Both the position numbers and the translations under genes were made by a program. Shown piece after piece: positions 10,243 to 31,087 of a stretch of 35,858 nucleotides of DNA. Origin of the DNA: Anaerolineales bacterium (GTDB taxonomy: Bacteria > Chloroflexota > Anaerolineae > Anaerolineales > UBA4823); the NCBI GenBank assembly GCA_046260155.1, contig JBJYXV010000101.1:1-35858 (forward strand), in the 5' to 3' direction. Under the pieces are notes generated by a model. The model was given only the letters and a program-made list of their open reading frames with translations. It ran no database searches and was not told the origin of the DNA. The first letter of the stretch is position 1; the number at the start of each line of letters is the position of its first letter.

Positions 10243-10269
10243 ACAGGCTTATTTGTTACAATAGGTACA

Positions 10270-10335: not shown

Positions 10336-10339
10336 GATA

Positions 10340-10987: not shown

Positions 10988-11005
10988 GCGAGTTCGATGC
11001 TTTGA

Positions 11006-11166: not shown

Positions 11167-11489
11167 AATGCAAGCAATGAAATTTGGAAAAGGCGATAGT
11201 ATATGGTATGAAGGGTAAAATCGTTGGAAGTATTGAGTGGAAGGGAATGGTTAGCAAGCTCATGCTGTTCGTTACCCGCTGGTGGGTGGGACAAGATGAC
11301 GCCGCCTTAACTGAACCAGCCTTGAACTGAAACCAGGGTGGGTAAATCACGCCGCTTACCTCTAGGTAACAGCCCAGTTAATTGCAACAGGGGTTAGGTC
11401 GCAGTCCACACACGTCGATAAAAAACAAGCAATACCAGTTCTTATTGGCAGATAGACGAAGATCCGCTAGCACATTCTTCATCGTCTAC

Positions 11490-13818: not shown

Positions 13819-14080
13819 GGGTGATTAATTATACTCGATTCCAGTGTGCTGCTTCCCCTCCCGAAACGATGCCCTTCAGACCATGACCTGCTTGCGATGT
13901 TTTGTTGGCAAGATGCGAATTACCGCAAAATAATTTGCACCTACCCGATAATTGTGATACACTTTTATAGCAATCTGTACCGGAAAAACGCTTGAACCTG
14001 CAAAATGGATAGCATCATTTACACCTCAAGTTACTGCTCCTATGTTTCCCAAGGTTTGGACAGATTGCAAGGAGTGCGTC

Positions 14081-14917: not shown

Positions 14918-14944
14918 ACCAGGATTAAGCAGCTGGAGAGTAAT

Positions 14945-15715
14945 ATGCGCATTATCCGTTATCAAACCGCGTCTCAACCTGCCACTTTCGGCTGGGTCAC
15001 AGAGGATAAGGTCGGGGTCATTGTAGGATCACCTTTTGCGCAGTTCAGCCGCGGTGAAGCTGACCTTAAAATGGACCAGGTCGAACTTCTTCCCCCGGTG
15101 ATCCCTAGTAAAATTGTATGCATTGGGCGCAACTATGTCGCCCATGCAAAAGAGCATGATGCTGAAGTACCCGAGGTGCCCCTGATCTTCCTCAAGCCTC
15201 CCTCGACGATCATCCCCCACGGCGGGACTATACACCTACCCCCACAATCACAGCAAGTCGAGCATGAAGCAGAATTAGCCGTCGTCGTCGGTAAAACCGG
15301 GCGCTGGATCCCTCCCGAAGAAGCCCAGGACTATATTTTCGGATACACGATCGCCAATGATGTCTCAGCGCGCGATCTGCAGTACCAGGATGGGCAGTGG
15401 ACCCGCGGCAAAGGATTTGACACCTTCTGCCCGCTGGGTCCATGGATTGAAACTGATTTCGATCCTGCAGATGCGGTGATCACCTGCCAGGTCAACGAGG
15501 AGATGCGGCAGATGGCTTCCACCCGCGACATGGTGTTCAGCGTCAGGCAGCTGATTGCCTACATATCATCCGTGATGACCCTCTTCCCTGGCGATTTATT
15601 GTTGACCGGCACGCCAGCCGGGGTGAATACCTTGCAGGATGGAGATTTTGTCGAGGTAGGGATCGAAGGAATCGGTACCCTGGGAAATAAAGTCGTAAAC
15701 GAACCGGCTCATTAA
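14945..15715 (+). CDS. fumarylacetoacetate hydrolase (FAH)-family protein (2-keto-4-pentenoate hydratase / oxaloacetate decarboxylase-like)
   Basis: KIVCIGRNYVAHAKEH...PLIFLKP...EAELAVVVGK...GYTIANDVSARDLQ...KGFDTFCPLGPW are canonical FAH-family motifs. SD GGAGAG upstream. Confidence 0.8.
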   Translation: MRIIRYQTASQPATFGWVTEDKVGVIVGSPFAQFSRGEADLKMDQVELLPPVIPSKIVCIGRNYVAHAKEHDAEVPEVPLIFLKPPSTIIPHGGTIHLPPQSQQVEHEAELAVVVGKTGRWIPPEEAQDYIFGYTIANDVSARDLQYQDGQWTRGKGFDTFCPLGPWIETDFDPADAVITCQVNEEMRQMASTRDMVFSVRQLIAYISSVMTLFPGDLLLTGTPAGVNTLQDGDFVEVGIEGIGTLGNKVVNEPAH

Positions 15716-15717
15716 CT

Positions 15718-16851
15718 GTGGAACTCCCTTTTTCACTCGACTCGCTCTCCATAGATGTGCATGCTGCTGTCCAGGTAGCGATCGCGCTTTCCCTGATTGG
15801 GTTGGTGCTGTGCATCTGGCTTGGCATCCGCGCCATTCGAAAGGCCAGAACCCTGCGATTTTTCCGCATGCGCCGGGACAGTATGGTGCGAGGCTGGCGA
15901 TTGCTTTTCTTTGCGCTCGTGTTGGCACTGCTGGCATTCTTGATCAACCGCTTTGCTGAACCTGTTGCTTATAATTTTTTCCCACCTACCCCGACTGCCT
16001 CACAAACCCCGACCATTACCATCACGCCCTCCATCACCCTGACCCCCACCATCACGCTGACACCCACCATTACATTAACTCCCTCGATCACGGACACTCC
16101 TACTGTCACACCTACCCCGAGTTTGCCTCCTGAGATTGAAAGTGGTATTGAAAGTATCGTTACACCCCTCCCTGATTCAATCTTCAGCCAGCTGATTTTC
16201 AGCGAAGGCATCGATCAGGAAACCTACCAGCCGTTGAATCCAGGCGAGGTGTTCCAAAATCCAGTTGGCCACATGTATGCTCTATTCAGCTACGACCGCA
16301 TGCTGGACGGATCGCAGTGGAGTGCCCTATGGTATCGCGGAGATGACCTAGTGTATTACGAAAGTAAACCCTGGGATGGCGGTACCGGTGGATTCGGCTT
16401 TTCGGATTGGGACGCCCAACCGTGGGAATGGCAGCCCGGGGAATATGAGGTGCGCATTTTTGTGGGAACCACGTGGAACATCTCGGGACGTTTCACGGTG
16501 GAGGGTGAGGCTCCAACGCCACCTCCCAGCGCGACCCCTTCCCGCACGCCGACCACCACGCCGATGCCGACTGCCTCGCCAACCCCAACGCCCACCCGTA
16601 CTCCAACGCCAACCCGCACAGCGACACCAACACGCACACTGACGCCAACTTTCGGTCCCTCACCAACCCCGCTGCCTCCCACTGCAACCAGGACTCTGCC
16701 CCCCTCCCCGAGTCCTTCCCCCACGAAAACTCGCTGGCCGACAGCAACCCCGGTCACGATCACGCCCACGAAAACTCGCTGGCCAACTGCCATTCCTACC
16801 ACGCTCACTCCAACCATCACCCGCCAGCCCTCCTCTACTCCTTTCCCATAG
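15718..16851 (+). CDS. membrane-anchored secreted protein with two Pro/Thr-rich linker tracts flanking a roughly 180-aa globular domain of unknown function
   Basis: GTG start immediately after the FAH stop. Two TM helices, then TPTITITPSITLTPTITLTPTITLTPSITDTPTVTPTPS, a central domain, and a long C-terminal PT/PS-rich tail (TPTPTRTPTPTRTATPTRT...TKTRWPTA x2). Confidence 0.6.
   Translation: MELPFSLDSLSIDVHAAVQVAIALSLIGLVLCIWLGIRAIRKARTLRFFRMRRDSMVRGWRLLFFALVLALLAFLINRFAEPVAYNFFPPTPTASQTPTITITPSITLTPTITLTPTITLTPSITDTPTVTPTPSLPPEIESGIESIVTPLPDSIFSQLIFSEGIDQETYQPLNPGEVFQNPVGHMYALFSYDRMLDGSQWSALWYRGDDLVYYESKPWDGGTGGFGFSDWDAQPWEWQPGEYEVRIFVGTTWNISGRFTVEGEAPTPPPSATPSRTPTTTPMPTASPTPTPTRTPTPTRTATPTRTLTPTFGPSPTPLPPTATRTLPPSPSPSPTKTRWPTATPVTITPTKTRWPTAIPTTLTPTITRQPSSTPFP
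16009..16113 (+). repeat. tandem 18-nt (6-codon) repeats encoding the (T-P-T/S-I-T-L)n linker
   Basis: accgaccattaccatcacg / ccctccatcaccctg / acccccaccatcacgctg / acacccaccattacatta / actccctcgatcacggac. A further 45-nt tandem duplication at 16720-16809 starts cccacgaaaactcgctggcc in both units. Confidence 0.7.
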
Positions 16852-16927: not shown

Positions 16928-17602
16928 ATGATTAAAGTCTCAAACAATTGGAGAAAATCTCATCCCGGGGGAGCAGCTGGCATCCTGAGCATGCAAATAG
17001 ATCGCCAGCAGCTGGATATAGCCGGACTTATTCGCAAGAAGGAAGCACTTGAAAATCGGCTCAGGGAAAAATACCGGGGTATTCCTCGTGCAGAAATGCG
17101 TGCAATTCCCATAATGGATGCCTATACGCAGTACTACAGGCGTTACAAGAAAACTTACCACCTCCTGCTGCAGCTCGATTCAATCTGCAACAAGGATAAA
17201 TCTATTCCAAATGTGGATCCCCTGGTGATAGCCATGTTCATGGCAGAACTGGATACTCTGCTGCTCACTGCTGGGCATGACCTGGATCAAATTTCAGGTC
17301 AAATCACGCTTGACTCTGCTGCCGGTGATGAAACATACACGTTGATCAACGGCGAGACCGCGACCTGCAAACCTGGCGATATGGTGACTGCTGATGAGCT
17401 AGGCGTCTTCTGCAGCATCATCTACGGCCAGGATCAGCGAACACAAATCACACCAGGAACTGATCATGTAATTTATGTTGTCTATGTTCCTCCCGGGATT
17501 GAGCCTGAGCGGATCGACAAGCATCTTCGGGATCTTGAGAGCTATGTTGGAATTGTTTTCCCCCAGGCGCAAATTACCTACCGTGAATTATTTTTCGCGT
17601 AA
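16928..17602 (+). CDS. B3/4 domain-containing protein (standalone PheT B3/4-like tRNA-binding/editing domain)
   Basis: MDAYTQYYRRY...NPLVIAMFMAELDTLLLTAGHDLDQISGQITL...GDMVTADELGVFCSIIYGQDQRTQITPGTDHVIYVVY resembles the B3/4 domain (hDlDkl.g.i.vR...gd.vIaD..g..alaGvmGG..s.v...T.nvllE.A.F). Confidence 0.45.
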   Translation: MIKVSNNWRKSHPGGAAGILSMQIDRQQLDIAGLIRKKEALENRLREKYRGIPRAEMRAIPIMDAYTQYYRRYKKTYHLLLQLDSICNKDKSIPNVDPLVIAMFMAELDTLLLTAGHDLDQISGQITLDSAAGDETYTLINGETATCKPGDMVTADELGVFCSIIYGQDQRTQITPGTDHVIYVVYVPPGIEPERIDKHLRDLESYVGIVFPQAQITYRELFFA

Positions 17603-17720: not shown

Positions 17721-19829
17721 CTATTGTTCGCATTCATCCGCGTAACCATATTGCTCAATATTCCAGGTATCGCTATCAGCAGTCGGGTCCATCCAATATC
17801 CACACAGCTCAGCTCCTGAAGCTGTCACTTTTAATCGCTGGTAAAGTGGTATCACCGGCAGATCACGGGCAAAAATTTCTTGAGCCAGCATGTGGTTCTC
17901 GATATAACCAGGTTGTCCAGGGAGTAGAGCCGAGGCACTTTCACATGCCTGGTCAAATTCGACGCTGCTGTAGCCACTATTATTTTGACCCTCCCAGCCT
18001 CGCGGAAAGCGTTGCGTGCCATCAGGATTAAGCACCTCCGGATCACCGGGGATATTTTCGCTCATGAAGTATTTACAGGGAGGAATATCACCAGCCAACG
18101 ATGCAAATTCCACTACATCGAAATCACGACGGACCACAGGGCTGGTGGGCAGCTCAAAAAATTCAGCAGCGTTCCAGTGCTGAATATTCACCTTGATACC
18201 GCATCTTGATAACGATTCAGTCAGAATTTGGGTGACCTGCTTGCGTGTTTCTGCATTCGTGGTCCAATAGTTAAACTCTAACCTGATGCCATCAGGCACG
18301 TCTGGTACGGATTGTGACTGGCGAGGAGTGCCTGGGTCAGCGTCATGATCGATCCAGCCCATTTCCTCTAATAATGCATTTGCCTTCGCTGGAGAAAACT
18401 CATAGCTGTTAATTTCCGGGTTGTAAAGTGGGTGGTCTGGAGGAATAAATGAATTCAGCACCTCGCCAGTGGTGATGTTCACGTAATACTCCTTACCGTT
18501 TTCCGGATAATATCGTTCATAATCAGACAACTGGTAGACAGCTTCGTCGATAACTCTCTGCCGATCAAGACACATGGCGATCGCCTGGCGGGTACGCACA
18601 TCCCCAAACAAGTCGGGGCGATCGCTGCCTGCCTGGTAGCCATCATCATAATCCGCATGCAGCAAGCAGAAATCAAAATGCTCCCACACATTTCCATTGA
18701 CGATATGAACCTGGAGCAATCCTAATTCGTCCATCCCGATTAATAAATTCAATACGACTTCCAAACCTGCATCCTGCTCAACCAAATCACATTCACCTGA
18801 TAGGATCTTGGAGATGTTGAAGATAGGATCCTCCCCAGTAAACCGGAAAACCAGGTTATCAAAGCGTGGCAAGCCTTCTTTAGCCCGGAAATAATAGGGA
18901 TTCTTACTTAGTTGAATTTCGTTACCAATTTCCCAATTCTCCAGCATGTAGGGCCCCCAACCCACAGGCAATAGATGGCTCTGCTCAGCTTCAGCCATTG
19001 CACCCTGGTCAACCTCAGCCATTTCTGCAACAGACATACCCTGCAGCTGGTGTTCAGGAAGCGGATGGAAGAAATTCGACATGTAGTCCGGATCCAAATT
19101 ACCAGGCAGACCTGTCCAACGGGTTGTGCGATCATCCAGATCGGTGAAATCAGCTGTTCGTTCAGCAAGCAAATGGTTTACACACCAATCTAGATTCTCT
19201 TCGCATTTCTGGGCGATCTTGAAGCTGAAGACTGCATCTGCAGCGGTTAGCGATTCTCCGTCGGACCATTTCAATCCTTCGAGCAGGGTAAAATCAGCTG
19301 AGAGCTGGTCCATTTCGAGTGCTTCCTTTTGGAAGATGATCGCACATTCACTCTGATTACAGCCAAAAGGTCGTACGCGATCACCTGCCGCCAACCTGAT
19401 TACTCCCCCAGCATCATTCACAACCAGATCCCCAGCTTGAACTGTAACTGGTTCAATGCGCGCATCACCATCCGCCAAATTGGGTAATTTTTCCAAAATC
19501 ACCGGCTGGTAGCTATACCCGAGAGGATCTATGGGACCATCATAGATCGCCTCCCAAACTGTATTGGTGACTAACATTGAGCTTTGATAGTAGAAAAGTG
19601 TATCAGGCTCTGCCCCCAAGCAGATGGTCAAGATGCGCGATTCAGGCGCAGGAGTTAGCTCTGGTACCATCGTGGGAATAGAGGTTCGCTCAGGTTCAGG
19701 TGGAGGACAGGTAGAACAGGGTGTATTCGCAACACTAACCGGCATACTCGTCTCAGCAAGAGAACATGCCGTTAAAAGAAGTACCAGAATTATGAGGATA
19801 AAACCCGATCGCTGATTCAGCCGATGCAT
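17721..19829 (-). CDS. ABC transporter substrate-binding lipoprotein, family 5 (Opp/Dpp/Nik-like), orphan
   Basis: Lipoprotein signal MHRLNQRSGFILIILVLLLTAC, then a Pro-rich linker (TPCSTCPPPEPERTSIPTMVPELTPAPE) and a roughly 600-aa SBP_bac_5-like body. No permease or ATPase genes adjacent. Confidence 0.7.
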   Translation of the reverse strand: MHRLNQRSGFILIILVLLLTACSLAETSMPVSVANTPCSTCPPPEPERTSIPTMVPELTPAPESRILTICLGAEPDTLFYYQSSMLVTNTVWEAIYDGPIDPLGYSYQPVILEKLPNLADGDARIEPVTVQAGDLVVNDAGGVIRLAAGDRVRPFGCNQSECAIIFQKEALEMDQLSADFTLLEGLKWSDGESLTAADAVFSFKIAQKCEENLDWCVNHLLAERTADFTDLDDRTTRWTGLPGNLDPDYMSNFFHPLPEHQLQGMSVAEMAEVDQGAMAEAEQSHLLPVGWGPYMLENWEIGNEIQLSKNPYYFRAKEGLPRFDNLVFRFTGEDPIFNISKILSGECDLVEQDAGLEVVLNLLIGMDELGLLQVHIVNGNVWEHFDFCLLHADYDDGYQAGSDRPDLFGDVRTRQAIAMCLDRQRVIDEAVYQLSDYERYYPENGKEYYVNITTGEVLNSFIPPDHPLYNPEINSYEFSPAKANALLEEMGWIDHDADPGTPRQSQSVPDVPDGIRLEFNYWTTNAETRKQVTQILTESLSRCGIKVNIQHWNAAEFFELPTSPVVRRDFDVVEFASLAGDIPPCKYFMSENIPGDPEVLNPDGTQRFPRGWEGQNNSGYSSVEFDQACESASALLPGQPGYIENHMLAQEIFARDLPVIPLYQRLKVTASGAELCGYWMDPTADSDTWNIEQYGYADECEQ

Positions 19830-20011
19830 GGTTTTCTCCTTCCAACCATGCAGGCTATATGGAAAATATTGAAATCAGATAATTCAATTATACATTTAGT
19901 CTGGATACATGCTCTGGATATCCGCCAGGCTCTGTTGCTTGAAATCGACCGAAGGGCTTTAATACCACTGCAGTCACAATTCTATCCTGATAACTGATAT
20001 TCTATTCAGGT

Positions 20012-20947
20012 TTATATTGAGTGCGTATGTGGAGTTTGCTGCCAGGCATGTGCGATTTGACCACCGATGCGGGCGTTATTCCGCAGTAAGCCCAGGTTTG
20101 CATTCAGGCTGGCGTTCCCGGTCAGTTCGGTCACTCGTTGGAGTAAAAAGGGAGTTACCCGCTGGCCGCGCACGCGTTCTTTTTTTGCATCCTTTAATGC
20201 TTCCTTCACCGCCTGGCGCATCTCATCCTCGGGCATGGCGACTTCCTCCGGCGGTGGGACGGTCACCAGCAGGGCGCTTTGCATGCCTAACCCCCAATGA
20301 GTACGCGCCAATTCGGTCACCTCTTCTGGTTCGTCTGCACGATGGCTGGTAGGCAGCCGGCTCTTGGCAGAATAAAAGGCTGGAAATTCACTGGTCTGGT
20401 AACCAACCACTGGGATTGAATAGGTCTCAAGGTATTCGATGGTCGCTGGTAGATCCAAGATCGCCTTCGCACCTGAACACACCACGATCACCGGCGTGCG
20501 AGCCAGCTGGGGTAAATCAGCCGAGATATCATTCGCCGGCTGCCGGTGGACACCCCCAATTCCTCCGGTAGCAAACACTTTGATTCCCACTATGTTGGCG
20601 ATAAAGATCGTACCTGCAACAGTCGTACCACCACTTGCTTCATTTAAAATCAGGCGAGAAAAGTCACGTGGGCTGGCCTTGTGAAGGTCCCCGGAACTCG
20701 CCAGGCGTTCTAATTGCATGATATCCAAACCAACATGGATCATCCCATCCAGGATGGCGATAGTGGCTGGTACGGCACCGTTCTGGCGCACCTCTTCCTC
20801 CATATCCTGGGCGAGCTGGATATTCTCCGGGTATGGAAGCCCGTGCGTGATGACGGTAGATTCCAATGCAACCAGGGGTAAGCCTAACGACTGGGCCCTG
20901 GCAACTTCCTTAGATACACGCAGATAAGATTTTATTTTCTGGTCCAT
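20012..20947 (-). CDS. psuG: pseudouridine-5'-phosphate glycosidase
   Basis: Full-length IndA/PsuG-like: LPLVALESTVITHGLPYPENI...GGTTVAGT...FATGGIGGVHR...DISADL. Confidence 0.85.
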   Translation of the reverse strand: MDQKIKSYLRVSKEVARAQSLGLPLVALESTVITHGLPYPENIQLAQDMEEEVRQNGAVPATIAILDGMIHVGLDIMQLERLASSGDLHKASPRDFSRLILNEASGGTTVAGTIFIANIVGIKVFATGGIGGVHRQPANDISADLPQLARTPVIVVCSGAKAILDLPATIEYLETYSIPVVGYQTSEFPAFYSAKSRLPTSHRADEPEEVTELARTHWGLGMQSALLVTVPPPEEVAMPEDEMRQAVKEALKDAKKERVRGQRVTPFLLQRVTELTGNASLNANLGLLRNNARIGGQIAHAWQQTPHTHSI

Positions 20948-20983
20948 TTAATTTTCTGAGCCTTGTTCAGGTTGAGATGGGTA

Positions 20984-21937
20984 TCAGATCACCAGTTGGT
21001 CGTACAACAGCTCGAGGGATAGATCATCCACGACAGTACCTCTATGGCGCAGGGTAATTGAAGCTGCAGTAACCCCCAGCCTGACCGCATCATCGAGTGG
21101 AATTTGATGCAGTAAGGCATAGATCACCGTGGCATTTAATGCATCTCCCGCACCTGTCGGATCGACAACCGATGTCCTGATTGCCGGGACATAGCCGCTG
21201 GTTTCCGAGGTCGCGTAAACCACCCCAAATTCTGCTAAAGAAACCAGGACAATACCAACTCCCTTGGAGACCAGGCATTTTGCCGCCTCAATGGCATCTT
21301 GCGGTTGGTTATTTTCTATGGTCAGTCCACACAGGACTCCTGCCTCGTCACCATTTGGCGTGATCAAGGAAAGCCGGTCTAAAAATGGCTCCAGGTGTTT
21401 TGCCAGGCTGGTGGAGGTTGGATCTGCACACACGGGTATACGCGCCCTGCGTGCTTGTGAAAAGATCGTCCGCAGGGTTTTTGCTGGTAAATTCGCATCG
21501 ATAAACACCAGGGAAGCCTGCTTGAACAGGTCTGCATGGGATCTTATGTAATCCGGGGTCAGGGATTTTGTAGCGTTGATATCATCCAGGGCAAACTGCA
21601 GGGTCCCTTTCTCATCGAGAATGCCAAGGTAGGTTCCGGTTGGGTGGTCAGATGTTGTACGCACCCTGCTGATGTCCACCCCAGCTTGGACGGATTGCGC
21701 TAATAACTGCTTCCCGGCATAATCTTCGCCAACCGCGGTCAGCAGGATCGTCCTTTGGCCGAGGCGGGATAAATTTTCAGCAATATTGCGCGCCACACCG
21801 CCATAAGACGTACGGATCTTGGCAGGGTTCTTGGTCCCCGGGACCAGCTCCTTTTCCAAGCGGCCGATCAGATCAACACCACTTCCACCGATCACGATCA
21901 CGGGCAGTTCAGGAGCGAGAAAGAATTCTTGGTCCAT
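20984..21937 (-). CDS. psuK: pseudouridine kinase (PfkB-family carbohydrate kinase)
   Basis: PfkB motifs (VIGGSGVDLIG...GGVARNIA...DPTGAGDA). Start ATG at 21935-21937 with SD AGGAGAT 7 nt upstream. The preceding gene's stop at 21939-21941 gives TAGCATGG coupling. The ORF track extends to 22078, which seems an over-extension. Confidence 0.8.
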   Translation of the reverse strand: MDQEFFLAPELPVIVIGGSGVDLIGRLEKELVPGTKNPAKIRTSYGGVARNIAENLSRLGQRTILLTAVGEDYAGKQLLAQSVQAGVDISRVRTTSDHPTGTYLGILDEKGTLQFALDDINATKSLTPDYIRSHADLFKQASLVFIDANLPAKTLRTIFSQARRARIPVCADPTSTSLAKHLEPFLDRLSLITPNGDEAGVLCGLTIENNQPQDAIEAAKCLVSKGVGIVLVSLAEFGVVYATSETSGYVPAIRTSVVDPTGAGDALNATVIYALLHQIPLDDAVRLGVTAASITLRHRGTVVDDLSLELLYDQLVI

Positions 21938-21938
21938 G

Positions 21939-23495
21939 CTAAATATCTCCTGCATAATGGGCGACAACATGCGCCAGGTGCGTCCAGACATCCCTGATCC
22001 TGCGGGCAGCTGGGGTATTGGCCTCATCGCGCCGGTCAAGAGCCTCCAGTGCCAGGTGAAGCTTTCCCCGGTAAGCATTCACTATCTTTACAAAATTAAT
22101 TTTGCGCAGTTCTTCATCAGCAGGATCAATCTGGTTGAATGTTTGCAGGGGTGTGTCATGCACAATGACCAGCATTTGTTCTGTCCAGCTGGTATTGGAT
22201 AGCTTCTCGAGCGAAGATTCATTACCGCGGGCCAGGTTTTCGTATGTGATCCGCCAGGCTTGCAGGTGACGCTCAGGAATGATGCCCGTCGGGAAATCCC
22301 AGGTTCCGATTCCAATCCAGCGCAGTTCTACTCCCTTTTCCCTCACTCTGGCGACAAAATTACTGTAATCGTAGAAGAGATCGCTGATCCCAGGGCGCGG
22401 TACAAATGGAGGTGGATCAGGTACATCAATCTCAAATTCTGCTTCCACGCCTGCCAGGCGACCAGCTTCGCTTTGCACTTCGACGATATTTTTAATGGTT
22501 TGCTCCAGTTCCGGGCGTCCTACCGCGGCTAAAAATTCGCTCAAAGTATGCCTGAAGATAAAGGCACCGAGCTCACGCTGGATCTGAGCTGCCATGAAAT
22601 CTGTCCAGGATTCACGGGTTAAATCATATACCAGGGACTCGACTGATTGCGGGTTGAAAGGATATGGTTTTTTCAGAGTAGGTTCCTGCCCATCGCGGCG
22701 AACACTGTAAATTACGCGCATATTTTTAACCTGGATGGGTATCCCATCCCGGGTCCGCGCATTAACCGAGAGTTCCTGTACTTGATCACGTAAATCGATC
22801 ACCCGTCTCAGGTGCTCAAAACTTCCGATCACCTTCGCCCCATCATCCTTTTTTCGCGCGCCATTACGATGATAGCCAAGTAAACCATTCAAAAGACCCT
22901 GTGACCTGGCCAGGAAGCTGCTGCCACCTGGCCGATCCTCCCGGGAGTTCTGCGAACTTTTTGATGTCGTCGGACCGATCACCTCCGGCATACCCCCAAC
23001 CTGTTCAAATACGGCAGCATTCTCAAGGTAAACCCTGACCTTCCCTGGTCCACCGATCAAGTACATAGGTGATGCTTGGTCCTTCAAACTAACTTCACCG
23101 TCTTTGATATCCAATACGTCATATTGGCTGGCAAAAGCAGATTGGCGGATAAATTGTTCTGCCACGCGCGTATCGTTGATCTTGTAAAGCTCATCCAGGT
23201 ACCTGCCTGCCGCTTGATACGCCAGCCAGAATACGAAAGCTCCTACCAGGACATGCTTGAAAACATCTGCTGCAAAAAGCGCCTGGAATGGATATACCAG
23301 TAAGCTCATCTCTGGATTACTGTTGGGAACAAATGGATGCCGGATATACCCCAGGACTGCCCAGCACACAGCGCCGATCAGGATCAGGATGGTTCGCCGG
23401 ATGGAAGCCGCGCGCAAGCGCGGATCAACGATTACCCCAACCAGCTGGGAGACCACGCTTTTCCAAATAGACCGCGTTAATGACCTGGCGTACAA
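21939..23495 (-). CDS. membrane protein (N-terminal TM helices plus a roughly 420-aa domain), paralogous to the C-terminal domain of the upstream LVIVD giant protein
   Basis: TTG start 8 nt after the SD AGGAG that sits just before the upstream gene's stop codon. Shared motifs with 23500-27717 residues about 920-1412: GPGKVRVYLENAAVFEQVGGM vs GPGVVFTSGEEFVHQEGM, and PFNPQSVESLV vs FNPESVQLAI. Weak SPFH/band-7-like pattern (ITRDGIPIQVKNMRVIYSV). Confidence 0.6.
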   Translation of the reverse strand: MYARSLTRSIWKSVVSQLVGVIVDPRLRAASIRRTILILIGAVCWAVLGYIRHPFVPNSNPEMSLLVYPFQALFAADVFKHVLVGAFVFWLAYQAAGRYLDELYKINDTRVAEQFIRQSAFASQYDVLDIKDGEVSLKDQASPMYLIGGPGKVRVYLENAAVFEQVGGMPEVIGPTTSKSSQNSREDRPGGSSFLARSQGLLNGLLGYHRNGARKKDDGAKVIGSFEHLRRVIDLRDQVQELSVNARTRDGIPIQVKNMRVIYSVRRDGQEPTLKKPYPFNPQSVESLVYDLTRESWTDFMAAQIQRELGAFIFRHTLSEFLAAVGRPELEQTIKNIVEVQSEAGRLAGVEAEFEIDVPDPPPFVPRPGISDLFYDYSNFVARVREKGVELRWIGIGTWDFPTGIIPERHLQAWRITYENLARGNESSLEKLSNTSWTEQMLVIVHDTPLQTFNQIDPADEELRKINFVKIVNAYRGKLHLALEALDRRDEANTPAARRIRDVWTHLAHVVAHYAGDI

Positions 23496-23499
23496 AGAT

Positions 23500-26400
23500 T
23501 TAACTCCTGATCCATGCTAATATTTTTAATATCTCGGCTTCCTCATCGGTCAGCCATTGATGAAGCCGGGTACGGCGCTTGAGCAGCTGCTGGGTGCTGG
23601 AGACCAGCATCTCCAGGCTGCTGGTTAGATCTGGACGTGAAAGGTCGTCGAAAGGCAGTGAGTTTCCATCATCATCCACGAGTGCCTGGCTGATATTTTG
23701 CGTAACAGTGGACGCGAAATCAATTAACGCCGTCTCCCTGCCCACCTCCTCCGCCAGGTTGCGCTTGCTTTCAACCACCTCTCGCTCCGTGATCGCCCGA
23801 TCCAACCAGCTGGACATCCATTGCTGGACTAACTGGGATTCGACTGTTCTCGGGAAGCGAAAGCCGCTGATTGAAACATCCCTGACCTGCACGCCCATTT
23901 CCTCGAGAATTGTAAATTCCCGGCTGATTTGGTTACCGGGGACCTCCTGGCCGTATTCATCCAGTTTCGGGACTTCTGCCTGTGTCAGCCGCAGCTTCAC
24001 CATCCGCAAGATGGTTTCCAAGCCGGTCTCACCAACAGCCGCAAATCGTTGGGCAGCATGCTCGCCGTCCACCGACATGGCCTGCGGATCAATGTTCGAT
24101 GTGGTGCTGAACAGATCTAATAATTTAAATTTACCCAGGTATTCCCGCCACAGGTCCACTGCAAGCAGGGCTGGTACTTCGAACCACGGCACATTCCGCA
24201 GATCATTGGGGACCACCCCTTCCCGGGTAATAGCCAGCTGCACCGATTCTGGATTGAAACCAAATCGAGTACCACCCTGCCCGGGCAGGGTTTTTGTCTT
24301 CACGATAGCCAATATATTCGGTACGATCTCGACAGCATCCCGGGTAAATCCACTGGTTTTTTGCCGCCGATCCTGGCGTAATTGGAACTCCTGTTCCGTT
24401 TCTCTTTTCCTGTTCCAGGGGGCAAATGGGTCATCTGCAGGCAGCGGACCAAGGGGAGGCAAGGGTTTCACCTGGGTGTGCAGGTCCATCCCTTCCTGGT
24501 GAACAAATTCCTCTCCACTGGTAAACACCACCCCTGGTCCAATCGCCCGCTTGAACTCGGTTTTGGTGCGCAGCATCGCTGCGCTGGCAGTATCCAGCAG
24601 CGCTACTCCAGGGTTTTTGCTTTTTCGATCACCCAATCCTTGAATTAATTTCCCATTTTCTATGCGCATCATGGTGCCATGAGAACCGACCAGGTAGCGG
24701 ACCAGACGATTGAAAGCTGCTGCCCTCTCTCCCAGCCTGTTCAGCGGCAGGACGAACTGTGCAAAGAATGCGAGCCAGATCAGCAGCCCTCCCACACCAA
24801 CCACCAACACATCAAAGAACGTCTGCCTGACGGTCCGCAAACTTTTTTCGGTCCCTGGACTGCCCAGTATGGGCAGCTGTTCAATGACCTGTTTCAACGG
24901 AGCCATACCAGGTGTTTCATATAAACCTGCCGTCACAGCGGTAATATCTTTATCCGCAGTGATAATCTCCAGCCCGCGGTCACCTTTGGCAACATAGATA
25001 AAGAAATTCCCCGGTGCGGCCTCCGCCCCTTTAGCCCACTCGGTATCCAGATTGAGGCTGTTTCCATCCAGTTCTATTCCGGATACGAGCGATGGATCAC
25101 CCGGATTAAGGATGTTAACCACCTGGAGCCCGGCTTCTCCGTCGGCGGCGAACAAATAGAACCCTGAGATCGCCAGGTCCAGCACCGTGCCCGGAGTGTC
25201 GATATAGGCAATCGTTTCAGGAGCAACTGGCTTTGAAATGTTGATCACCCAGATGCCGTTCGGCCCATCCGCGAGGTAAGCGTAATCACCCGAAACAACC
25301 ACGCTGTTTGCGTTCTGAAACTGGTCGATCAGGCTGGTCGTGATCGGATCATAGGGATCAGCAACGTTGACGATCATCAATCCCGCTTCGCCGTCTGCGA
25401 TATATGCATATTGATCCGCAACAAATACATCCCGCGCTGCACCGGGTGTCTGGTGCTGGCTTAAAAGGTTGAGATTTGCGGGATCGCTCACATTTGCAAT
25501 ATACAATCCGGAGACGCTATCTGTGAAATAGGCAAGTTCGTCATCCACATAAACAGCATTTGCTTTACCTGAAGTAGTCACTTCACCCAGGTAAGCTGCT
25601 TGATTAACCTGCGAAATATTGACGGTTTGCAGGCCGAATGAATCAGCCAGGTAGGCAACATCTCCCTGGATGGTGATATCCTCAACGATCCCTCCCTGGT
25701 CATAATGCCCGACCTGCTTGAGATAGCGGGGATCGGAAACATCTGCACTTCGAAATCCGCTATTCAAATCCGTCAGGTAGGCATAAGCTCCTGCAACTTT
25801 CACATTCCTGACAATGCGGGGAATATCGTAAAATCCCACCTCAAACGGCTCGGTCGGATTCGAAATATCTATAATCCGCATTCCACGCGTGTTATCCGCA
25901 ACATATGCAGTTTCACCCAGTGCTGCCAGGCCATAAGCCTCTCCAGGTGTATTCAGCACACCGGTTTCAGCGATATTCCCCGGATCGGAAATATCCACCA
26001 CCCGAAATCCCCAACCGCCTGCTGCCAGATAGGCCTGGTTTCCGGACAGGACCACGTCGATCACGGTCTCATATCCGGTGTAAGCACCAATTTCTACCGG
26101 TACCTGGGGATTGGTCGCGTCGATCACACGCAGTCCCCCATCACCATCGGCTACATATGCAAGGATCCTTGATTCTTGACCATTTTCCAGTTCTACTGCC
26201 ACAGCACGCGCCTCCCCTGGCGTATCAATGAAACCAACCTCCGCCGGTTTCGCGCTGTCCAGGATGTTAATAATCCGCAATCCAGAATCACCATCCGCAA
26301 CATATGCATACTCACCGAGGACCGCAATGCCGGTAGCTGTGCCTGGCGTCTGCTCAGAACCCAGCAATACAGGTTGTGATGGATTTGCCATCCCAATGAT

Positions 26401-27717
26401 CTGCAAGCCTCCAGAACCATCCGCCAGATAGAGATTCTGACCCTCAATCGCCGCCAGATGAGCTTCACCGGGCGAATCTATTACCGCGACTTCGGTCACG
26501 CTCAGATCGCCCCCAGCAGTAGATTCAAGCGTTAATACCTGCAATCCCGCAGCGCCATCCGCGAAATAGATAAAATCTCCTGCGATAGTGACCCCGTTTG
26601 CGGCTCCAGGGCTATCATAGTTCGCAATTTCTACCGGCACGGCCGGGTTGCTGATATCGATCACCTGCAGACCCTGGTTGGCGTTGGTCACAAAAGCATA
26701 TTCATCCTTAACTGCCACAGACTGTAAATTCCCCTGCTGTTGTTCGGTGCCGGAAATCCTCTGCAGAGATAAATCTAGCTCCACATCCACCACGTACAAG
26801 GCGCTATCTTTATCCGATAAATATACGCCGCCTTCATTCACCTCGACCTGGTTTGCGTACAGGGGTTTTGAAAAATAACCCACTTCTTCCACCGCATTCT
26901 CATCAGACAGGTCATAGACCAGCATTCCATTTTCCCCATCCGCGAGGAAAGCAATGGTGCCCAGCGTTACAGCCACATCCTGGAGATTCCCCGGTGTTTC
27001 GATACTGGACAGAATTGCCGGCTGGGCGGGATCGGAGATATCAACCGTCATTAACCCATTTGAACCCAATGCCAGGTAAATCCTGGATTCGGAGATATCC
27101 ATATCCTGGATATCTGCGCCAACGTCCAGGACTGCAACTTCTACTGGCTGGAGTGGCTTTGAGATATTGATCACTCTCAACTGGTTCTGGTTATCCCCCA
27201 AATATGCGAACTTGCCCTGTACAACCACCCGCCTTACATTACCAGCGACCTTTAAACTGCCTGACAACTTCGGCGCATTCTTGTTCCCTACATCAAGTAT
27301 TAACAATCCGGGATTACCGTTTGCAACGTAGGCAGTGTCGCGTACGACGGCAACATCACTTGCAAAACCCCCGTTGTCGAAGGCACTGATCTCCCGAGGT
27401 GAGGTTGGATTTCCCGCGTCAATGATCCTTAGGCCTGCGCGGCCATCGGCAACATACACATACTGGCCCGAGACTGCTACCCCACTTGCATGCCCGGTGG
27501 TATCGAAAGATCCAATTTCACCTGGCTGCTCTGCGAGTGATACATCGACAATCACCAAGCCCGCTCTCCCGAGTACCATGTAGGCCAGGTTCCCCACAAC
27601 TTTCAAGTCATTAACCGGTTCTGCGGGACGAGCGAGGAAGAGATACAAACCTACCACCCCCAAGAAAATGAAGAGGCTTGGTCTCCAAAGACGGCGTTTG
27701 CGAGGTTGTTCGCTCAT
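23500..27717 (-). CDS. giant (about 1405 aa) membrane protein: N-terminal signal-anchor, at least 18 LVIVD beta-propeller repeats, a second TM helix, then a roughly 480-aa C-terminal domain
   Basis: Repeated xAYVADGxxGLRIIDISNPxxP units (LVIVD repeat). TM helix FFDVLVVGVGGLLIWLAFFAQFVL at about residue 900. The C-terminal domain is a paralog of the downstream 518-aa protein. Alternative TTG start at 27738. Confidence 0.75.
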   Translation of the reverse strand: MSEQPRKRRLWRPSLFIFLGVVGLYLFLARPAEPVNDLKVVGNLAYMVLGRAGLVIVDVSLAEQPGEIGSFDTTGHASGVAVSGQYVYVADGRAGLRIIDAGNPTSPREISAFDNGGFASDVAVVRDTAYVANGNPGLLILDVGNKNAPKLSGSLKVAGNVRRVVVQGKFAYLGDNQNQLRVINISKPLQPVEVAVLDVGADIQDMDISESRIYLALGSNGLMTVDISDPAQPAILSSIETPGNLQDVAVTLGTIAFLADGENGMLVYDLSDENAVEEVGYFSKPLYANQVEVNEGGVYLSDKDSALYVVDVELDLSLQRISGTEQQQGNLQSVAVKDEYAFVTNANQGLQVIDISNPAVPVEIANYDSPGAANGVTIAGDFIYFADGAAGLQVLTLESTAGGDLSVTEVAVIDSPGEAHLAAIEGQNLYLADGSGGLQIIGMANPSQPVLLGSEQTPGTATGIAVLGEYAYVADGDSGLRIINILDSAKPAEVGFIDTPGEARAVAVELENGQESRILAYVADGDGGLRVIDATNPQVPVEIGAYTGYETVIDVVLSGNQAYLAAGGWGFRVVDISDPGNIAETGVLNTPGEAYGLAALGETAYVADNTRGMRIIDISNPTEPFEVGFYDIPRIVRNVKVAGAYAYLTDLNSGFRSADVSDPRYLKQVGHYDQGGIVEDITIQGDVAYLADSFGLQTVNISQVNQAAYLGEVTTSGKANAVYVDDELAYFTDSVSGLYIANVSDPANLNLLSQHQTPGAARDVFVADQYAYIADGEAGLMIVNVADPYDPITTSLIDQFQNANSVVVSGDYAYLADGPNGIWVINISKPVAPETIAYIDTPGTVLDLAISGFYLFAADGEAGLQVVNILNPGDPSLVSGIELDGNSLNLDTEWAKGAEAAPGNFFIYVAKGDRGLEIITADKDITAVTAGLYETPGMAPLKQVIEQLPILGSPGTEKSLRTVRQTFFDVLVVGVGGLLIWLAFFAQFVLPLNRLGERAAAFNRLVRYLVGSHGTMMRIENGKLIQGLGDRKSKNPGVALLDTASAAMLRTKTEFKRAIGPGVVFTSGEEFVHQEGMDLHTQVKPLPPLGPLPADDPFAPWNRKRETEQEFQLRQDRRQKTSGFTRDAVEIVPNILAIVKTKTLPGQGGTRFGFNPESVQLAITREGVVPNDLRNVPWFEVPALLAVDLWREYLGKFKLLDLFSTTSNIDPQAMSVDGEHAAQRFAAVGETGLETILRMVKLRLTQAEVPKLDEYGQEVPGNQISREFTILEEMGVQVRDVSISGFRFPRTVESQLVQQWMSSWLDRAITEREVVESKRNLAEEVGRETALIDFASTVTQNISQALVDDDGNSLPFDDLSRPDLTSSLEMLVSSTQQLLKRRTRLHQWLTDEEAEILKILAWIRS

Positions 27718-27996
27718 GCTGGAATGATTGTATAACAAAACTCAAAATTAGGGGAATTCACTTCGCAGCTGGTGATAAAATCATAGCAAGCTGGCTGCAA
27801 TCATAAAACCAGCAGCAGATGGTTCGCATGTAGAATTCGTCAGGACAAGCAATCGCGCCCAAATCAAGGAAAAGATCCTCATCCAACCTTGGTAATCCGG
27901 TATGTTAATTGCACATCAACTAGATCGTCGGGTGCAGAACGGAAACCTGCTTCGATCTGTATTTCCAAATTACTAATTTCTGCGGAGAGCTAACTA

Positions 27997-29208
27997 ATGA
28001 CCGAATTTTCTGGAAAAGGGAAGGTTGCCGTCCTCAAAACCACACCGGAAACCGTATTAGATGATATTGAAAAATTAATGCAGCTGGCAGACTATCGCTT
28101 TGCATTACCCAAGGATGTTCAAACGGGGTTGAAGATCAACATCTCCTGGCAAACCTGGTACCCTGCCTGCTCTACAACACCCTGGCAGCTGGAAGGGGTT
28201 ATCAGGGCTCTGAAGAATGAAGGTTACACGGACCTGGTAGGAGTTCACAACGACACCGTGGTGGTCAATACGGAAGATGCCGAGGTAAACAACAAGCACA
28301 AGCTGATCACTGACCAGTACGATATCCCCTGCCTTTACCTCTATAATGAAGATTTCGAGTGGATACAATACGAACCCAAACGCCCCTTGTTAGTGCTCGA
28401 TAAGGTTTACCCAGACGGCATATTCATCCCTAAGGCTTTGATTGGGATGAATATCGTCCACCTGCCGACGGTTAAAACCCACGTGTTTACCACGATCACA
28501 GGTGCGATGAAGAACGCCTTTGGTGGCTTACTGCATCGCAACCGCCATTGGACCCACGCGGTGATTCATGACACCGTGGTCGACCTGCTCGCCATCCAGC
28601 AGGACATTCACCCGGGTATTTTCGCCGTCATGGATGGCACTTTCGCCGGAGATGGTCCTGGACCTAGGGCAATGCGCTGGCACGAGAAGAATATCCTGCT
28701 CGCCTCTGCGGACCAGGTAGCGATCGATGCTGTCTCAGCGAAACTGCAGGGATTCGACCCGCTCAGCCTGCGCTTTATCCGCAAGGCGCATGAACTGGAC
28801 CTGGGTGTTGGCGACCCCAACCAGATTGAGATCGTTGGCTACAATATCGAGCAGGAACCCCCCTGGAATTTCAAGCGCGAAGACACCTTTGCTAGCCGCG
28901 GGCAGCACATGATTTACCACGGCCCGTTGAAACCGTTCGAGAAGCTGCTGCTGCAAACACCCCTCGTCCCCTGGGCATATTTTGCCAGCAATTTCTACCA
29001 CAATGTTTACTGGTATCCCTTCGTAGGGCGCAAACGTGTGCAGTCTGCTCTGGATACACAATGGGGCAAACTCTTCCAATCCTATGGTGACGGAACCGTA
29101 GTCATGCCCGGCATGGAGCCAAAAACAGTCATGCAGGCCGTGGCTGGATTAACGATCCTGACTGCTGCTGCGCTGGGTACGGCTTACCTTCTTCGCAGAA
29201 GGAATTAA
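27997..29208 (+). CDS. DUF362 domain-containing protein with C-terminal TM anchor
   Basis: KVAVLKTTPETVLDDIEKLMQLADYRFALPKDVQTGLKINISWQTWYPACSTTPWQLEGVIRAL matches the DUF362 N-terminal pattern. C-terminal hydrophobic helix AVAGLTILTAAALGTAYLL. SD GGAGAG upstream. Confidence 0.6.
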   Translation: MTEFSGKGKVAVLKTTPETVLDDIEKLMQLADYRFALPKDVQTGLKINISWQTWYPACSTTPWQLEGVIRALKNEGYTDLVGVHNDTVVVNTEDAEVNNKHKLITDQYDIPCLYLYNEDFEWIQYEPKRPLLVLDKVYPDGIFIPKALIGMNIVHLPTVKTHVFTTITGAMKNAFGGLLHRNRHWTHAVIHDTVVDLLAIQQDIHPGIFAVMDGTFAGDGPGPRAMRWHEKNILLASADQVAIDAVSAKLQGFDPLSLRFIRKAHELDLGVGDPNQIEIVGYNIEQEPPWNFKREDTFASRGQHMIYHGPLKPFEKLLLQTPLVPWAYFASNFYHNVYWYPFVGRKRVQSALDTQWGKLFQSYGDGTVVMPGMEPKTVMQAVAGLTILTAAALGTAYLLRRRN

Positions 29209-29319
29209 TCACCTCCAGTTAGGAACCTTGACGATTGACGCACGGCCACCTGCGTCAATCTTTTCTCGAGATTTTGCTCCCTGAATCCCGTTGATTCGTG
29301 ATTGTTTCTTCCTTTATTT

Positions 29320-30354
29320 ATGGTTGAAGATTCTCTGCACCACCAAGCAGACACACAAGAAAAAACTGCTTCACCGGTTTCGCGCAAGCTCATTTATGGG
29401 CTGCTGTTCGGATTCCTGGTCTTTGTCGCCCTGATCCTGGTGGGAGATATCCGCCAAATCGGTGCCGAAGTGCGCAGCTTCCCCTGGCAGATCATGCCGG
29501 TAGTCCTTGGCCTGACCCTTTGGAATTACCTGCTGCGCTTCATTAAATGGCATTACTTCCTGCAAAAAGTAGAAGTACCCAACTTATCAATCTTGGATAG
29601 CGCCAGGCTTTTCGTGGCAGGTTTCCCACTGGCAGTCACTCCAGCCAAGGTCGGGGAAACCTTGAAAGGAGTCTGGTTGAACCAATTGACAGGGTTCCCG
29701 ACCGCGCGCGGTGTTTCCGTGGTTCTCGCAGAGCGCATCAGTGATGGACTGGCGATGCTGGTGCTCTCCACCGTGGGTGTGATCGCTTACCGGCGCTACT
29801 GGCCTGCCTTCGCCATCGTGCTGGGTCTGCTGCTGGGCGCAGTGATCATTTCACAAATCCGGCCGCTGGCTCATTATTTGCTCAGCTGGGGACCGCGCAT
29901 TCCCCTGGTCCGGCGGTTTGCCAATTCGATCAACGAATTTTACGAAGGCACCTTCACCCTGTTCAAGCCATGGACAACCTTCGTATCTGTCAGCCTGGGA
30001 ACGATATCGTGGATGGCGGAAGGTGTTGGCTTCTATTTGATCCTGGTTGGTTTAGGGGTTACACCTGGCGTGGGTACACTTTCCATCGCCATCTTCGTGC
30101 TTTCTTTTTCGACCGTGATTGGGGCTGTTTCAGCATTACCAGGAGGTTTGCTGGCTGCGGATGCATCCATCGTGGGTATGTTGGTGTTACTGCTGGGCAT
30201 GGATACCAACACCGCTGCTGCGGCGACCCTTTTGATCCGCTTTGCTACCTTGTGGTTTGGGGTAGGGATCGGTTTCATAACCTGGTTCTTCTCGCGTGAT
30301 CTGCTCACCATGCGCCTTACCCAGCCCCTGTCCCAAAACTCACCAAGGGAATAA
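29320..30354 (+). CDS. UPF0104 / lysylphosphatidylglycerol-synthase-TM-like (flippase-like) integral membrane protein
   Basis: About 8 TM helices with the characteristic pattern (LWNYLLRFIKWHYFL...FVAGFPLAVTPAKVGETLKG...RFATLWFGVGIGF). The TTG at 29302 is the alternative start. Confidence 0.6.
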   Translation: MVEDSLHHQADTQEKTASPVSRKLIYGLLFGFLVFVALILVGDIRQIGAEVRSFPWQIMPVVLGLTLWNYLLRFIKWHYFLQKVEVPNLSILDSARLFVAGFPLAVTPAKVGETLKGVWLNQLTGFPTARGVSVVLAERISDGLAMLVLSTVGVIAYRRYWPAFAIVLGLLLGAVIISQIRPLAHYLLSWGPRIPLVRRFANSINEFYEGTFTLFKPWTTFVSVSLGTISWMAEGVGFYLILVGLGVTPGVGTLSIAIFVLSFSTVIGAVSALPGGLLAADASIVGMLVLLLGMDTNTAAAATLLIRFATLWFGVGIGFITWFFSRDLLTMRLTQPLSQNSPRE

Positions 30355-30424
30355 AAGCCCTGATAGAATAACACCTCGGTCCTTCGAAATACTCATTCAC
30401 CCATGACTGCAGACCTGGAGAATT

Positions 30425-31087
30425 ATGCTGCGCATCGAGACCCACTGCCACACGATTTACTCGAAAGACAGCCTGGTGCGTCCTGAAGATCTGCTCAAGA
30501 GCTGCGAGAAGAAAGGCATTGACCGGATCGTGATCACCGATCACAACACTACGCGCGGGGCTTTTGAAACGCGCAAACTCGATTCCCAGCGGGTGATCAT
30601 CGGCGAAGAAATCATGACCACCAAAGGCGAGCTGTTGGCTGCCTATATGCAGGAAGAAATTCCACGCGGGCTCTCGCCAGAAGAGACCATCGCATGCCTG
30701 CGCGACCAGGGAGCTTTTATCAGCGTCTCCCACCCATTCGACCAGCTGCGCAGTGGGCACTGGCAGGAAGAAGATTTGCTGGCCATCGCACCTCTGGTGG
30801 ATGCGATTGAGGTCTTCAACGCGCGCTGCATATCCCCGGATTACAATCGCAGGGCGAGGGAATTCGCACAGCGGTACAACCTGGCAGGTACTGCAGGCTC
30901 GGATGCCCATTCCAATTTCGAACTGGGCCGGGCTGCCATGCTGCTGCCTGATTTCAACGATGCACAGAGTTTAATCTCAGTCTTACCTGAGGTTAAATTT
31001 GAGACCCGGCTCTCCTCACCTTTTGTCCATTTCACGTCTCGTTATGCCGTCTGGTATAAGCAGGCTTTTAAGCCTCCTGTACCTTGA
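30425..31087 (+). CDS. PHP-domain metal-dependent phosphoesterase
   Basis: N-terminal ETHCHTIYSKDS...RIVITDHNT plus later His/Asp motifs (SVSHPFD, GSDAHS) typical of PHP. SD GGAG upstream. Confidence 0.75.
   Translation: MLRIETHCHTIYSKDSLVRPEDLLKSCEKKGIDRIVITDHNTTRGAFETRKLDSQRVIIGEEIMTTKGELLAAYMQEEIPRGLSPEETIACLRDQGAFISVSHPFDQLRSGHWQEEDLLAIAPLVDAIEVFNARCISPDYNRRAREFAQRYNLAGTAGSDAHSNFELGRAAMLLPDFNDAQSLISVLPEVKFETRLSSPFVHFTSRYAVWYKQAFKPPVP

Follow-up and report, generated by a model that had tools for sequence, protein, structure and literature searches.

A stretch of 35,858 nucleotides (nt) from an Anaerolineales bacterium (assembly GCA_046260155.1, contig JBJYXV010000101.1), referred to here as the window, was examined for a block of four genes designated A, B, psuK and psuG. 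On their predicted structures the products of A and B are very divergent SPFH proteins, and it is considered probable (roughly 0.6) that they form a heteromeric SPFH cage or scaffold on the cytoplasmic face of the membrane, bearing a propeller crown and co-transcribed with psuK and psuG. The analysis draws on AlphaFold2 models of moderate confidence, simple topology rules and the comparative genomics of metagenome-assembled genomes (MAGs). On the minus strand the four open reading frames (ORFs) are arranged head to tail, with gaps of 4, 1 and 36 nt, and the features of the block, including the transmembrane (TM) segments of A, are as follows.

23500..27717 (minus strand, stop codon included): gene A, predicted LVIVD-propeller/SPFH membrane protein of 1405 amino acids (aa), from the ORF, Pfam LVIVD, the C-terminal SPFH fold and the choice of start
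27622..27690 (minus strand): A, predicted TM1 or signal-anchor, residues ~10-32, from hydropathy and flanking charges
24943..27615 (minus strand): A, predicted extracytoplasmic region with 21 LVIVD repeats, residues ~35-925, from Pfam and periodicity
24748..24819 (minus strand): A, predicted TM2, residues ~967-990, with the motif WLAFFAQFVLP conserved in the family, from hydropathy, the A-family alignment and a helix in the AlphaFold2 model
23503..24720 (minus strand): A, predicted cytoplasmic SPFH domain, long coiled-coil-type helix and C-terminal helices, residues ~1000-1405
21939..23495 (minus strand): gene B, predicted SPFH paralogue of 518 aa with a TTG start and AGGAG 8 nt upstream, from the ORF, the junction, AlphaFold2, Foldseek, hhalign and Band_7 in relatives
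20984..21937 (minus strand): psuK, probable pseudouridine kinase (PfkB family) of 317 aa, from Pfam, NCBIfam, its PDB relative and the junction
20012..20947 (minus strand): psuG, pseudouridine-5'-phosphate glycosidase of 311 aa, from Pfam and full-length PDB matches

Fold, relatedness and topology of A and B

Homologue searches at E up to 1e-3 returned 109 and 170 proteins, and two family alignments of diverse members were used, A1 for the B family (27 members) and A2 for the A family (28 members). AlphaFold2 models built on these alignments had a mean predicted local distance difference test score (pLDDT) of 79.7 for the C-terminus of A and 74.7 for B. When the models were compared with the PDB using Foldseek, SPFH proteins alone were found at ranks 1-50 (A) and 1-47 (B), with 42 and 36 matches respectively at E up to 1e-3 and a best E of ~7e-8. 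Among these top matches were HflK/C, stomatin, prohibitin, erlin, flotillin, QmcA and the SPFH-like shoulder of the major vault protein. Both models consist of SPFH beta/alpha units followed by a helix of 47-56 residues (model residues 371-426 in A and 407-453 in B) and further C-terminal helices. Together with the hydrophobic segments described below, this gives an N-terminal membrane anchor, an SPFH domain and a long C-terminal helix in A and B alike. Among the relatives, Pfam Band_7 (PF01145) was detected at E up to 1 in 18/28 members of the A family (best 8.5e-10) and 9/27 members of the B family (best 8.1e-6), and some database homologues carry precomputed PF01145. An earlier note on this DNA, made from the sequence without database searches, had called the domain uncharacterised and possibly SPFH/band-7-like, and this is borne out in both proteins. 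It had also named the prediction of two unrelated structures as a way in which its reading could fail; both domains were predicted to be SPFH and were found to be related. A role in a defence system was also considered and gained no support, the PADLOC scan of both proteins being empty.

Pairwise BLASTP of the C-terminal 486 aa of A against B was not significant (E 0.13). Comparison of the two family alignments with hhalign gave a probability of 97.3% and an E of 2.4e-11 over 295 columns at 19% identity, in a region running from TM2 through the globular domain into the long helix. A common TM2 motif, FWLA[FY], is present in both families despite this low identity. The paralogy of A and B is real, detectable by profiles but not pairwise. 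It had been described beforehand as clear; the relationship itself stands, and the pairwise result removes the clarity. The motifs cited for it also fared differently, with FNP.SV in register and GPG.V...E...F.Q.GGM about 25 residues out of register and thus a chance resemblance: hhalign pairs GGPGKV of B with KNPGVA of A, and IGPGVV of A with IGPTTS of B.

Both proteins have a K/R-rich N-terminus and two hydrophobic segments, predicted by hydropathy at residues 10-32 and 967-985 of A and, after the Arg/Lys-rich N-terminus, at residues 30-48 and 73-91 of B. The N-terminus of A (MSEQPRKRR) is positively charged and is accordingly predicted to be cytoplasmic. Within TM2, positions F66, Q68, L71 and P72 of the A-family alignment (28 members) are invariant, and the AlphaFold2 model has a helix at 38-69. 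Standalone A proteins likewise contain two hydrophobic segments, with a short loop between them. An N-in/C-in topology is suggested for both A and B, in which case both SPFH domains would be cytoplasmic.

In A, the two hydrophobic segments enclose a long array of LVIVD repeats (PF08309). Pfam scores 15 of these repeats, at an E of 5e-128 and 416.6 bits (gathering cutoff 20.2). The NCBIfam 'choice-of-anchor B' model TIGR04312 was also matched (110 bits, cutoff 100). By its periodicity, the array was found to contain 21 repeats of 42-43 aa with the pattern G.A.GV.V.G..AYVADG..GL.I.D.S.P..P, a number of blades that would fit three 7-bladed beta-propellers. The three thirds of the array are mutually ~30% identical and Tandem Repeats Finder detected no DNA-level tandem repeat in the LVIVD coding region, from which it would appear that the array is old. 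The earlier description of a 1405-aa protein with a signal-anchor, LVIVD repeats and a second TM helix agrees with the ORF, Pfam and hydropathy results.

Conservation of the pair and origin of the propellers

Two sets of loci were compared: five neighbourhoods around database homologues, and 80 loci taken from a one-genome-per-species scan, in which 216 relatives were confirmed and the best 80, those most similar to the query, were kept. These best 80 of the 216 were all from Chloroflexota MAGs, mostly labelled Anaerolineales. The full set comprised 88 loci, or 85 after removal of three duplicates, and was examined by tblastn and ORF spacing. An A-type gene was found directly upstream of a B-type gene in 80/80 informative loci, with a spacing mostly of -25 to +6 nt, and this adjacency holds at B identities down to 27% (roughly 27-45% outside the window's own clade). 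Checked in this way in other Chloroflexi, the four-gene arrangement reported by the earlier note proved to be kept across dozens of Anaerolineae MAGs, by which a gene order unique to this genome is ruled out. The core A-B-psuG block is also kept in locus L007 despite unrelated flanks, namely PilZ/Usp upstream and mfd downstream. As far as sampled, the A/B family would be a Chloroflexota-restricted, unannotated and heteromeric branch of the SPFH proteins.

One Anaerolineales MAG (L040) was found to contain two tandem SPFH pairs, at 1566-5905 and 8283-12484, about 2.4 kb apart. The first consists of an LVIVD-containing A of 846 aa and a B-type protein, B', of 606 aa (30% identical to B of the window, E 8e-59), and does not lie directly before psuG. 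The second consists of a standalone A of 549 aa and a B of 538 aa, followed by psuG. In L040, A and B have been duplicated as a unit. Such duplication, together with an adjacency that includes start/stop overlaps and is kept in all 80 loci, although identity falls to roughly 27-45% beyond the window's own clade, and with a TM2 motif shared at ~19% identity, a pattern of long-term co-retention like that of HflK/HflC, makes it very unlikely that A and B do not co-assemble and form separate homo-oligomeric SPFH rings, their adjacency being a relic of an old tandem duplication. That account can point to the existence of homo-oligomeric SPFH cages (stomatin, 9oh9; QmcA, 8z5g) and to the C-terminal tail of B, the length of which (91-200 aa) varies independently of that of A (constant at 96-108 aa), with no positive correlation over 20 anchorable pairs.

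The propellers show a different distribution from that of the pair itself. LVIVD repeats were found in 15/85 loci, the other 70 having no propeller. A profile search with A against 1.84 billion representative proteins returned 1345 clusters at E up to 1e-3, of which 390 also passed 1e-30. Of the best 150 A-family clusters, ~125 were standalone (~440-590 aa), ~21 were of ~690-890 aa and 4 were of ~1300-1440 aa, the forms of ~690-890 aa having one propeller's worth of LVIVD repeats. When the SPFH domains of A were placed in a rough neighbour-joining tree, the ~1400-aa forms (window, L001, L009-L019) came together in one clade, and the ~800-aa forms were scattered. By this comparison the original arrangement, and still the most frequent one, consists of two standalone SPFH genes in the order A-B, ~19% identical to each other. 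Since standalone A already has two hydrophobic segments and a short loop, the propellers are lineage-specific insertions in the extracytoplasmic loop of a hairpin.

This reverses the history given in the earlier note, which had the C-terminal domain of A duplicated as a separate downstream gene; a recent duplication is ruled out by the 19% identity and the class-wide pairing. The propeller had likewise been regarded as fused to the domain through a TM helix, and a loop insertion into a pre-existing hairpin takes the place of this. As the same hairpin is present in standalone A, the propeller cannot be a separate N-terminal module that a linker helix connects to the domain.

The large extracytoplasmic domain of A, of a ligand-binding type and joined to a cytoplasmic domain by membrane helices, could also be taken for that of a transmembrane signalling receptor, in which a ligand would be sensed by the surface propellers and the signal passed via TM2 to the cytoplasmic domain and the partner protein. 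This is regarded as highly improbable: Pfam and NCBIfam scans of A and B found no output domain, such as a kinase, cyclase, HAMP or DNA-binding domain, and the cytoplasmic domains have the fold of scaffold proteins. The propeller is also absent from ~125 of the top 150 A-family cluster representatives and from 70/85 loci, and as most A proteins are without it the core A/B function should need no external sensor. Of the earlier suggestion of a signalling or membrane-scaffold pair, scaffolding fits the fold, and signalling finds no output or enzymatic domain to carry it.

The probable operon and its link to pseudouridine catabolism

At the A/B junction the stop codon of gene A (TAA) is followed after 4 nt by the TTG of gene B, with AGGAG placed 8 nt 5' of this TTG; the earlier statement that gene B begins 8 nt after the stop of A had taken this second spacing for the gap. 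Homologues of gene B begin at the same MY.R position in the alignment. The stop codon of gene B (TAG) is followed after 1 nt by the ATG of psuK at 21937 (TAGCATGG), and psuG follows 36 nt after psuK, in agreement with the tight coupling that had been noted between gene B and the two psu genes. The longest kinase ORF (20984-22078, minus strand, 364 aa) reaches 141 nt into the 3' end of gene B, and the product is taken to be 317 aa, given that the called genes of homologues are of 312-324 aa and that a Shine-Dalgarno sequence and ATG are present at 21937. A sequencing artefact at the junctions is ruled out, as equally tight junctions recur in independent assemblies.

Upstream of gene A, a promoter-like element was found by aligning the upstream regions of related loci.

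27727..27738 (minus strand): promoter-like 12-mer TTGTTATACAAT, of extended -10 type, ending 9 nt before the gene A ATG, from the alignment of upstream regions

The longest ORF of gene A extends over 23500..27738, with a TTG start and 1412 aa, and this TTG at 27738 makes up the first 3 nt of the conserved 12-mer, for which reason the ATG at 27717 is taken as the real start. In the alignment of the window with eight relatives, a block of TTTTGTTATACAATC is invariant and ends ~9-12 nt before the gene A ATG. At the same position, TTGTTATACAAT, or TTGTTATAAT, the latter a perfect extended -10 (TGnTATAAT), was found in 24/85 non-redundant loci (L001, L009, L011-L013, L015, L017, L026, L028, L030, L036, L040, L043, L045, L052, L053, L055, L056, L060, L072, L073, L076, L077 and L088), including some with proteins only ~30% identical. 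The chance expectation for the exact 12-mer is ~0.003 per 21-kb locus. No Shine-Dalgarno sequence is present 5' of the gene A ATG. The position and conservation of the motif, together with this absence, point to a promoter immediately at gene A, from which an mRNA with a very short leader or none would carry A, B, psuK and psuG. A consensus promoter and terminator scan of 19700-28100 gave fewer promoter-like sites than shuffled sequences and terminator-like sites at shuffle level, and missed the conserved 12-mer found by alignment. An Rfam scan of the whole window returned two tRNAs only; upstream of the operon neither a riboswitch nor a leader RNA was detected.

A near-palindromic motif, ATTGTAACAAT, was observed 55-65 nt upstream of the 12-mer in the giant-LVIVD clade (L001 at 5633, L009 at 975, L011 at 2184, L012 at 3201, L013 at 5700 and L015 at 3937). 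On its other strand it reads TTGTTACAAT, which is extended -10-like and points at a divergent DUF362 gene. Alternatively, it could form an operator half-site pair with the 12-mer. The copy in the window, at ~27800-27812, is degraded to ATTGCAGCCAG.

The psuG product matches Pfam Indigoidine_A (E 3e-116), and its full-length matches in the PDB are pseudouridine-5'-phosphate glycosidases of solved structure (8k05, E 6e-84; 4gij of E. coli, E 6e-80); it keeps the Lys, within SGAKAILD, that is Ala in the 8k06 variant. The kinase matches Pfam PfkB (E 2.5e-54) and has the pseudouridine kinase 7vkp as its best PDB relative (E 2e-42, with ribokinase at E 4.5e-25). Its best NCBIfam match is PRK09850, pseudouridine kinase, at 163.6 bits, which is below the equivalog cutoff of 540. 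The gene is probably psuK, an assignment supported by its adjacency to psuG.

Downstream of B and on the same strand, psuG was found in 68/69 informative loci. It follows B directly in 33/69 (gap -15 to +124 nt, median 3) and comes after a psuK orthologue (PfkB) in 35/69, about half of the loci being without psuK. All of the 40 loci (out of 88) with a gap above 600 nt encode a PfkB orthologue, with phmmer E values of 1e-100 to 1e-160 and 2e-38 for the partial ORF of L060. The sole exception to the presence of psuG is L022 (3930-5923), in which the gene after A-B-psuK is DNA polymerase III delta-like (Pfam DNA_pol3_delta2), suggesting that psuK can stay with the A/B pair when psuG is absent from the site. 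Judged by this gene order, the link of A/B to pseudouridine catabolism is real and conserved across Anaerolineae, and the four genes of the window are probably co-transcribed.

Such a link raises the question of whether the pair serves the pathway physically. In one such scheme A and B would be a dedicated scaffold or membrane-attached compartment for pseudouridine/RNA-nucleoside salvage, which recruits or encloses PsuG (and PsuK) or gates a nucleoside importer; pseudouridine 5'-phosphate would be made and cleaved at the membrane, and nucleic-acid debris outside the cell, or the cell envelope, might be bound by the outer propellers. The tight placement of psuG after B in 68/69 loci, even where the outer flanks differ as in L007, and a PHP-family phosphoesterase gene as divergent neighbour in 43/53 informative loci, agree with this idea. 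It is nevertheless unlikely, as PsuG is of canonical length with no terminal extension usable for targeting or anchoring, the LVIVD-A/B' pair of L040 has no psuG directly downstream, L022 has DNA_pol3_delta2 in its place, and no transporter was found in the conserved block of the five neighbourhoods. No paper joining SPFH proteins to pseudouridine catabolism was found in the literature searched. Furthermore, hflK-hflC of E. coli is part of the miaA-hfq-hflX superoperon but is not known to be directly connected with tRNA modification, which shows that an SPFH pair can be stably co-transcribed with RNA-related genes for regulatory reasons. The fuller version, in which the conserved SPFH_A-SPFH_B-(psuK)-psuG operon is a functional module and the cage a salvage compartment or docking platform, coupled in some lineages through the hairpin to an LVIVD crown, is decidedly unlikely. 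Shared regulation is more likely than physical partnership as the reason for the psuG link.

The genes flanking the block on the opposite strand are as follows.

27997..29208 (plus strand): DUF362 gene, from Pfam
29302..30354 (plus strand): flippase-like LPG_synthase_TM gene, from Pfam
30425..31087 (plus strand): PHP-domain metallohydrolase gene, divergent neighbour, from Pfam

The DUF362 and LPG_synthase_TM genes lie between gene A and the PHP gene in the window's clade, and the divergent cluster of all three (27997-31087) is kept in L001, L004, L012, L015 and L018. The PHP protein reached the cutoff of no NCBIfam model, those for RNase RNM and nucleoside bisphosphate phosphatase among them. 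On the other side of the block, the window contains at 14042-16851 (plus strand) genes for an RpiR-type regulator (HTH_6/SIS), an FAA-hydrolase-family enzyme and an unannotated protein of ~340-380 aa, a trio which is convergent to psuG in L003, L004 and L006. In the window a B3_4-domain gene (16928-17602) and a gene for an SBP_bac_5 substrate-binding protein (17721-19829) separate the trio from psuG, the latter being an insertion relative to related loci. A gene at 15718-16851 (plus strand) encodes a 377-aa predicted membrane protein with no Pfam match and long Thr/Pro-rich repeats (TPTITLTPTITLTPSIT..., PTPTRTPTPTRTATPTRT...), to which the strong GC skew of -0.26 in the 16-17 kb interval is attributed.

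Proposed assembly and its relation to known SPFH systems

It is proposed that A and B are an obligate pair of ancient, highly divergent SPFH paralogues, each anchored by a two-helix membrane hairpin with its N-terminus inside and, in the basic form, a short loop outside. The SPFH domain and long C-terminal helices of each would lie on the cytoplasmic face, where A and B would alternate in a ring- or cage-shaped hetero-oligomer fencing off a patch of membrane. By analogy, this alternating ring or cage is the most likely arrangement, as alternation is seen in all heteromeric SPFH pairs whose structures have been solved (HflK/HflC, prohibitin 1/2, erlin 1/2 and flotillin 1/2). In the lineage of the window, the outer loop of the A hairpin would be enlarged by the 21 LVIVD blades into an extracellular propeller crown over the cytoplasmic cage. 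Known SPFH cages contain roughly 11-22 dimers each, and at that number of A/B dimers the window version would display tens of propellers on its outer face. The pair would be transcribed from the conserved extended -10-type promoter at the gene A ATG and translationally coupled to psuK and psuG. Through this shared promoter and coupling, the scaffold would be made together with two enzymes that turn pseudouridine into uracil and ribose-5-phosphate.

Several results weigh against this proposal. The C-terminal domain of A and the whole of B gave no Pfam (to E 10), NCBIfam or PADLOC match, and profile searches of PDB sequences returned no SPFH match, only chance TRIM5 matches at E ~0.5; as the window proteins match no family model, their SPFH membership is drawn from predicted structure and from relatives. 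The topology comes solely from simple hydropathy and the positive-inside rule, and the stretch preceding TM2 of A also has 3 K/R. No membrane client (FtsH, NfeD, channel or transporter) was found in the conserved block of the five neighbourhoods examined. The tail lengths of A and B, with no positive correlation, bear little on the matter either way.

Among known systems, HflK/HflC, classed as prokaryotic SPFH3 (Hinderhofer et al., 2009; PMC2636767), shares with A/B two adjacent, anciently diverged SPFH paralogues that are kept together and, in A/B probably, co-transcribed, and the combination of membrane anchor, SPFH domain and long helix. Alternation in one cage would be expected for A/B as well. 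The two systems differ in that HflK/C has a single N-terminal TM segment and a periplasmic SPFH cage enclosing FtsH, whereas A/B has a hairpin and SPFH domains predicted to be cytoplasmic. The C-terminal domain of A and B also lack an HflK/HflC NCBIfam match, sequence similarity to HflK/HflC was undetectable in profile searches of PDB sequences, and no ftsH or hflX was found near A/B in the five neighbourhoods.

With the flotillins and stomatins (FloA/FloT, YqiK, QmcA-YbbJ), A/B has in common the SPFH fold with a coiled-coil wall, and, as in flotillin and stomatin, a predicted cytoplasm-facing position with hairpin-type anchoring. The heteromeric pairing proposed here would resemble that of flotillin-1/2, erlin-1/2 and PHB1/2. 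Unlike in flotillin and stomatin, the hairpin of A seems to cross the membrane fully, as its loop holds 300-900 residues of exported propeller, and the A/B proteins have almost double the length of stomatin and HflC and contain family-specific insertions. An NfeD partner gene defines the SPFH1/2/5 operons (PMC2636767); in contrast to such stomatin/flotillin-NfeD operons, no NfeD family was detected in the five neighbourhoods or the scanned window ORFs.

The 42-residue repeats and predicted exported location in A are like those of the LVIVD or 'choice-of-anchor B' surface proteins (PF08309, TIGR04312). LVIVD repeats have been described in cell-surface proteins, which are secreted or surface-anchored (PMC2447325), whereas those of A lie between the two helices of an SPFH subunit. 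No paper on LVIVD together with SPFH, or on a bacterial SPFH/beta-propeller fusion, was found in the literature searched. As in E. coli psuK (yeiC) and psuG (yeiN), the kinase and glycosidase are encoded together in the window. The partner gene in E. coli is that of the nucleoside transporter psuT, in contrast to the two SPFH genes that are the conserved upstream partners here.

SPFH proteins have recently been shown to build closed membrane cages, and most bacterial members are without a known client or purpose. The A/B family, which is invisible to standard annotation in that its window members escape every Pfam and NCBIfam model, would add a heteromeric bacterial SPFH pair with a predicted cytoplasmic orientation. 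A may further be viewed as a natural experiment in which an outer hairpin loop has accepted one to three whole beta-propellers. The class-wide, translationally coupled link to psuG offers a lead to the function of the pair. If the link is only regulatory, A/B would still be a clean example of SPFH divergence and of the gain of extracellular modules. If it is physical, a bacterial SPFH cage would gain a defined metabolic client, and should the salvage platform in particular prove true, A/B would be the first SPFH assembly with both a defined metabolic client and a built-in extracellular domain.

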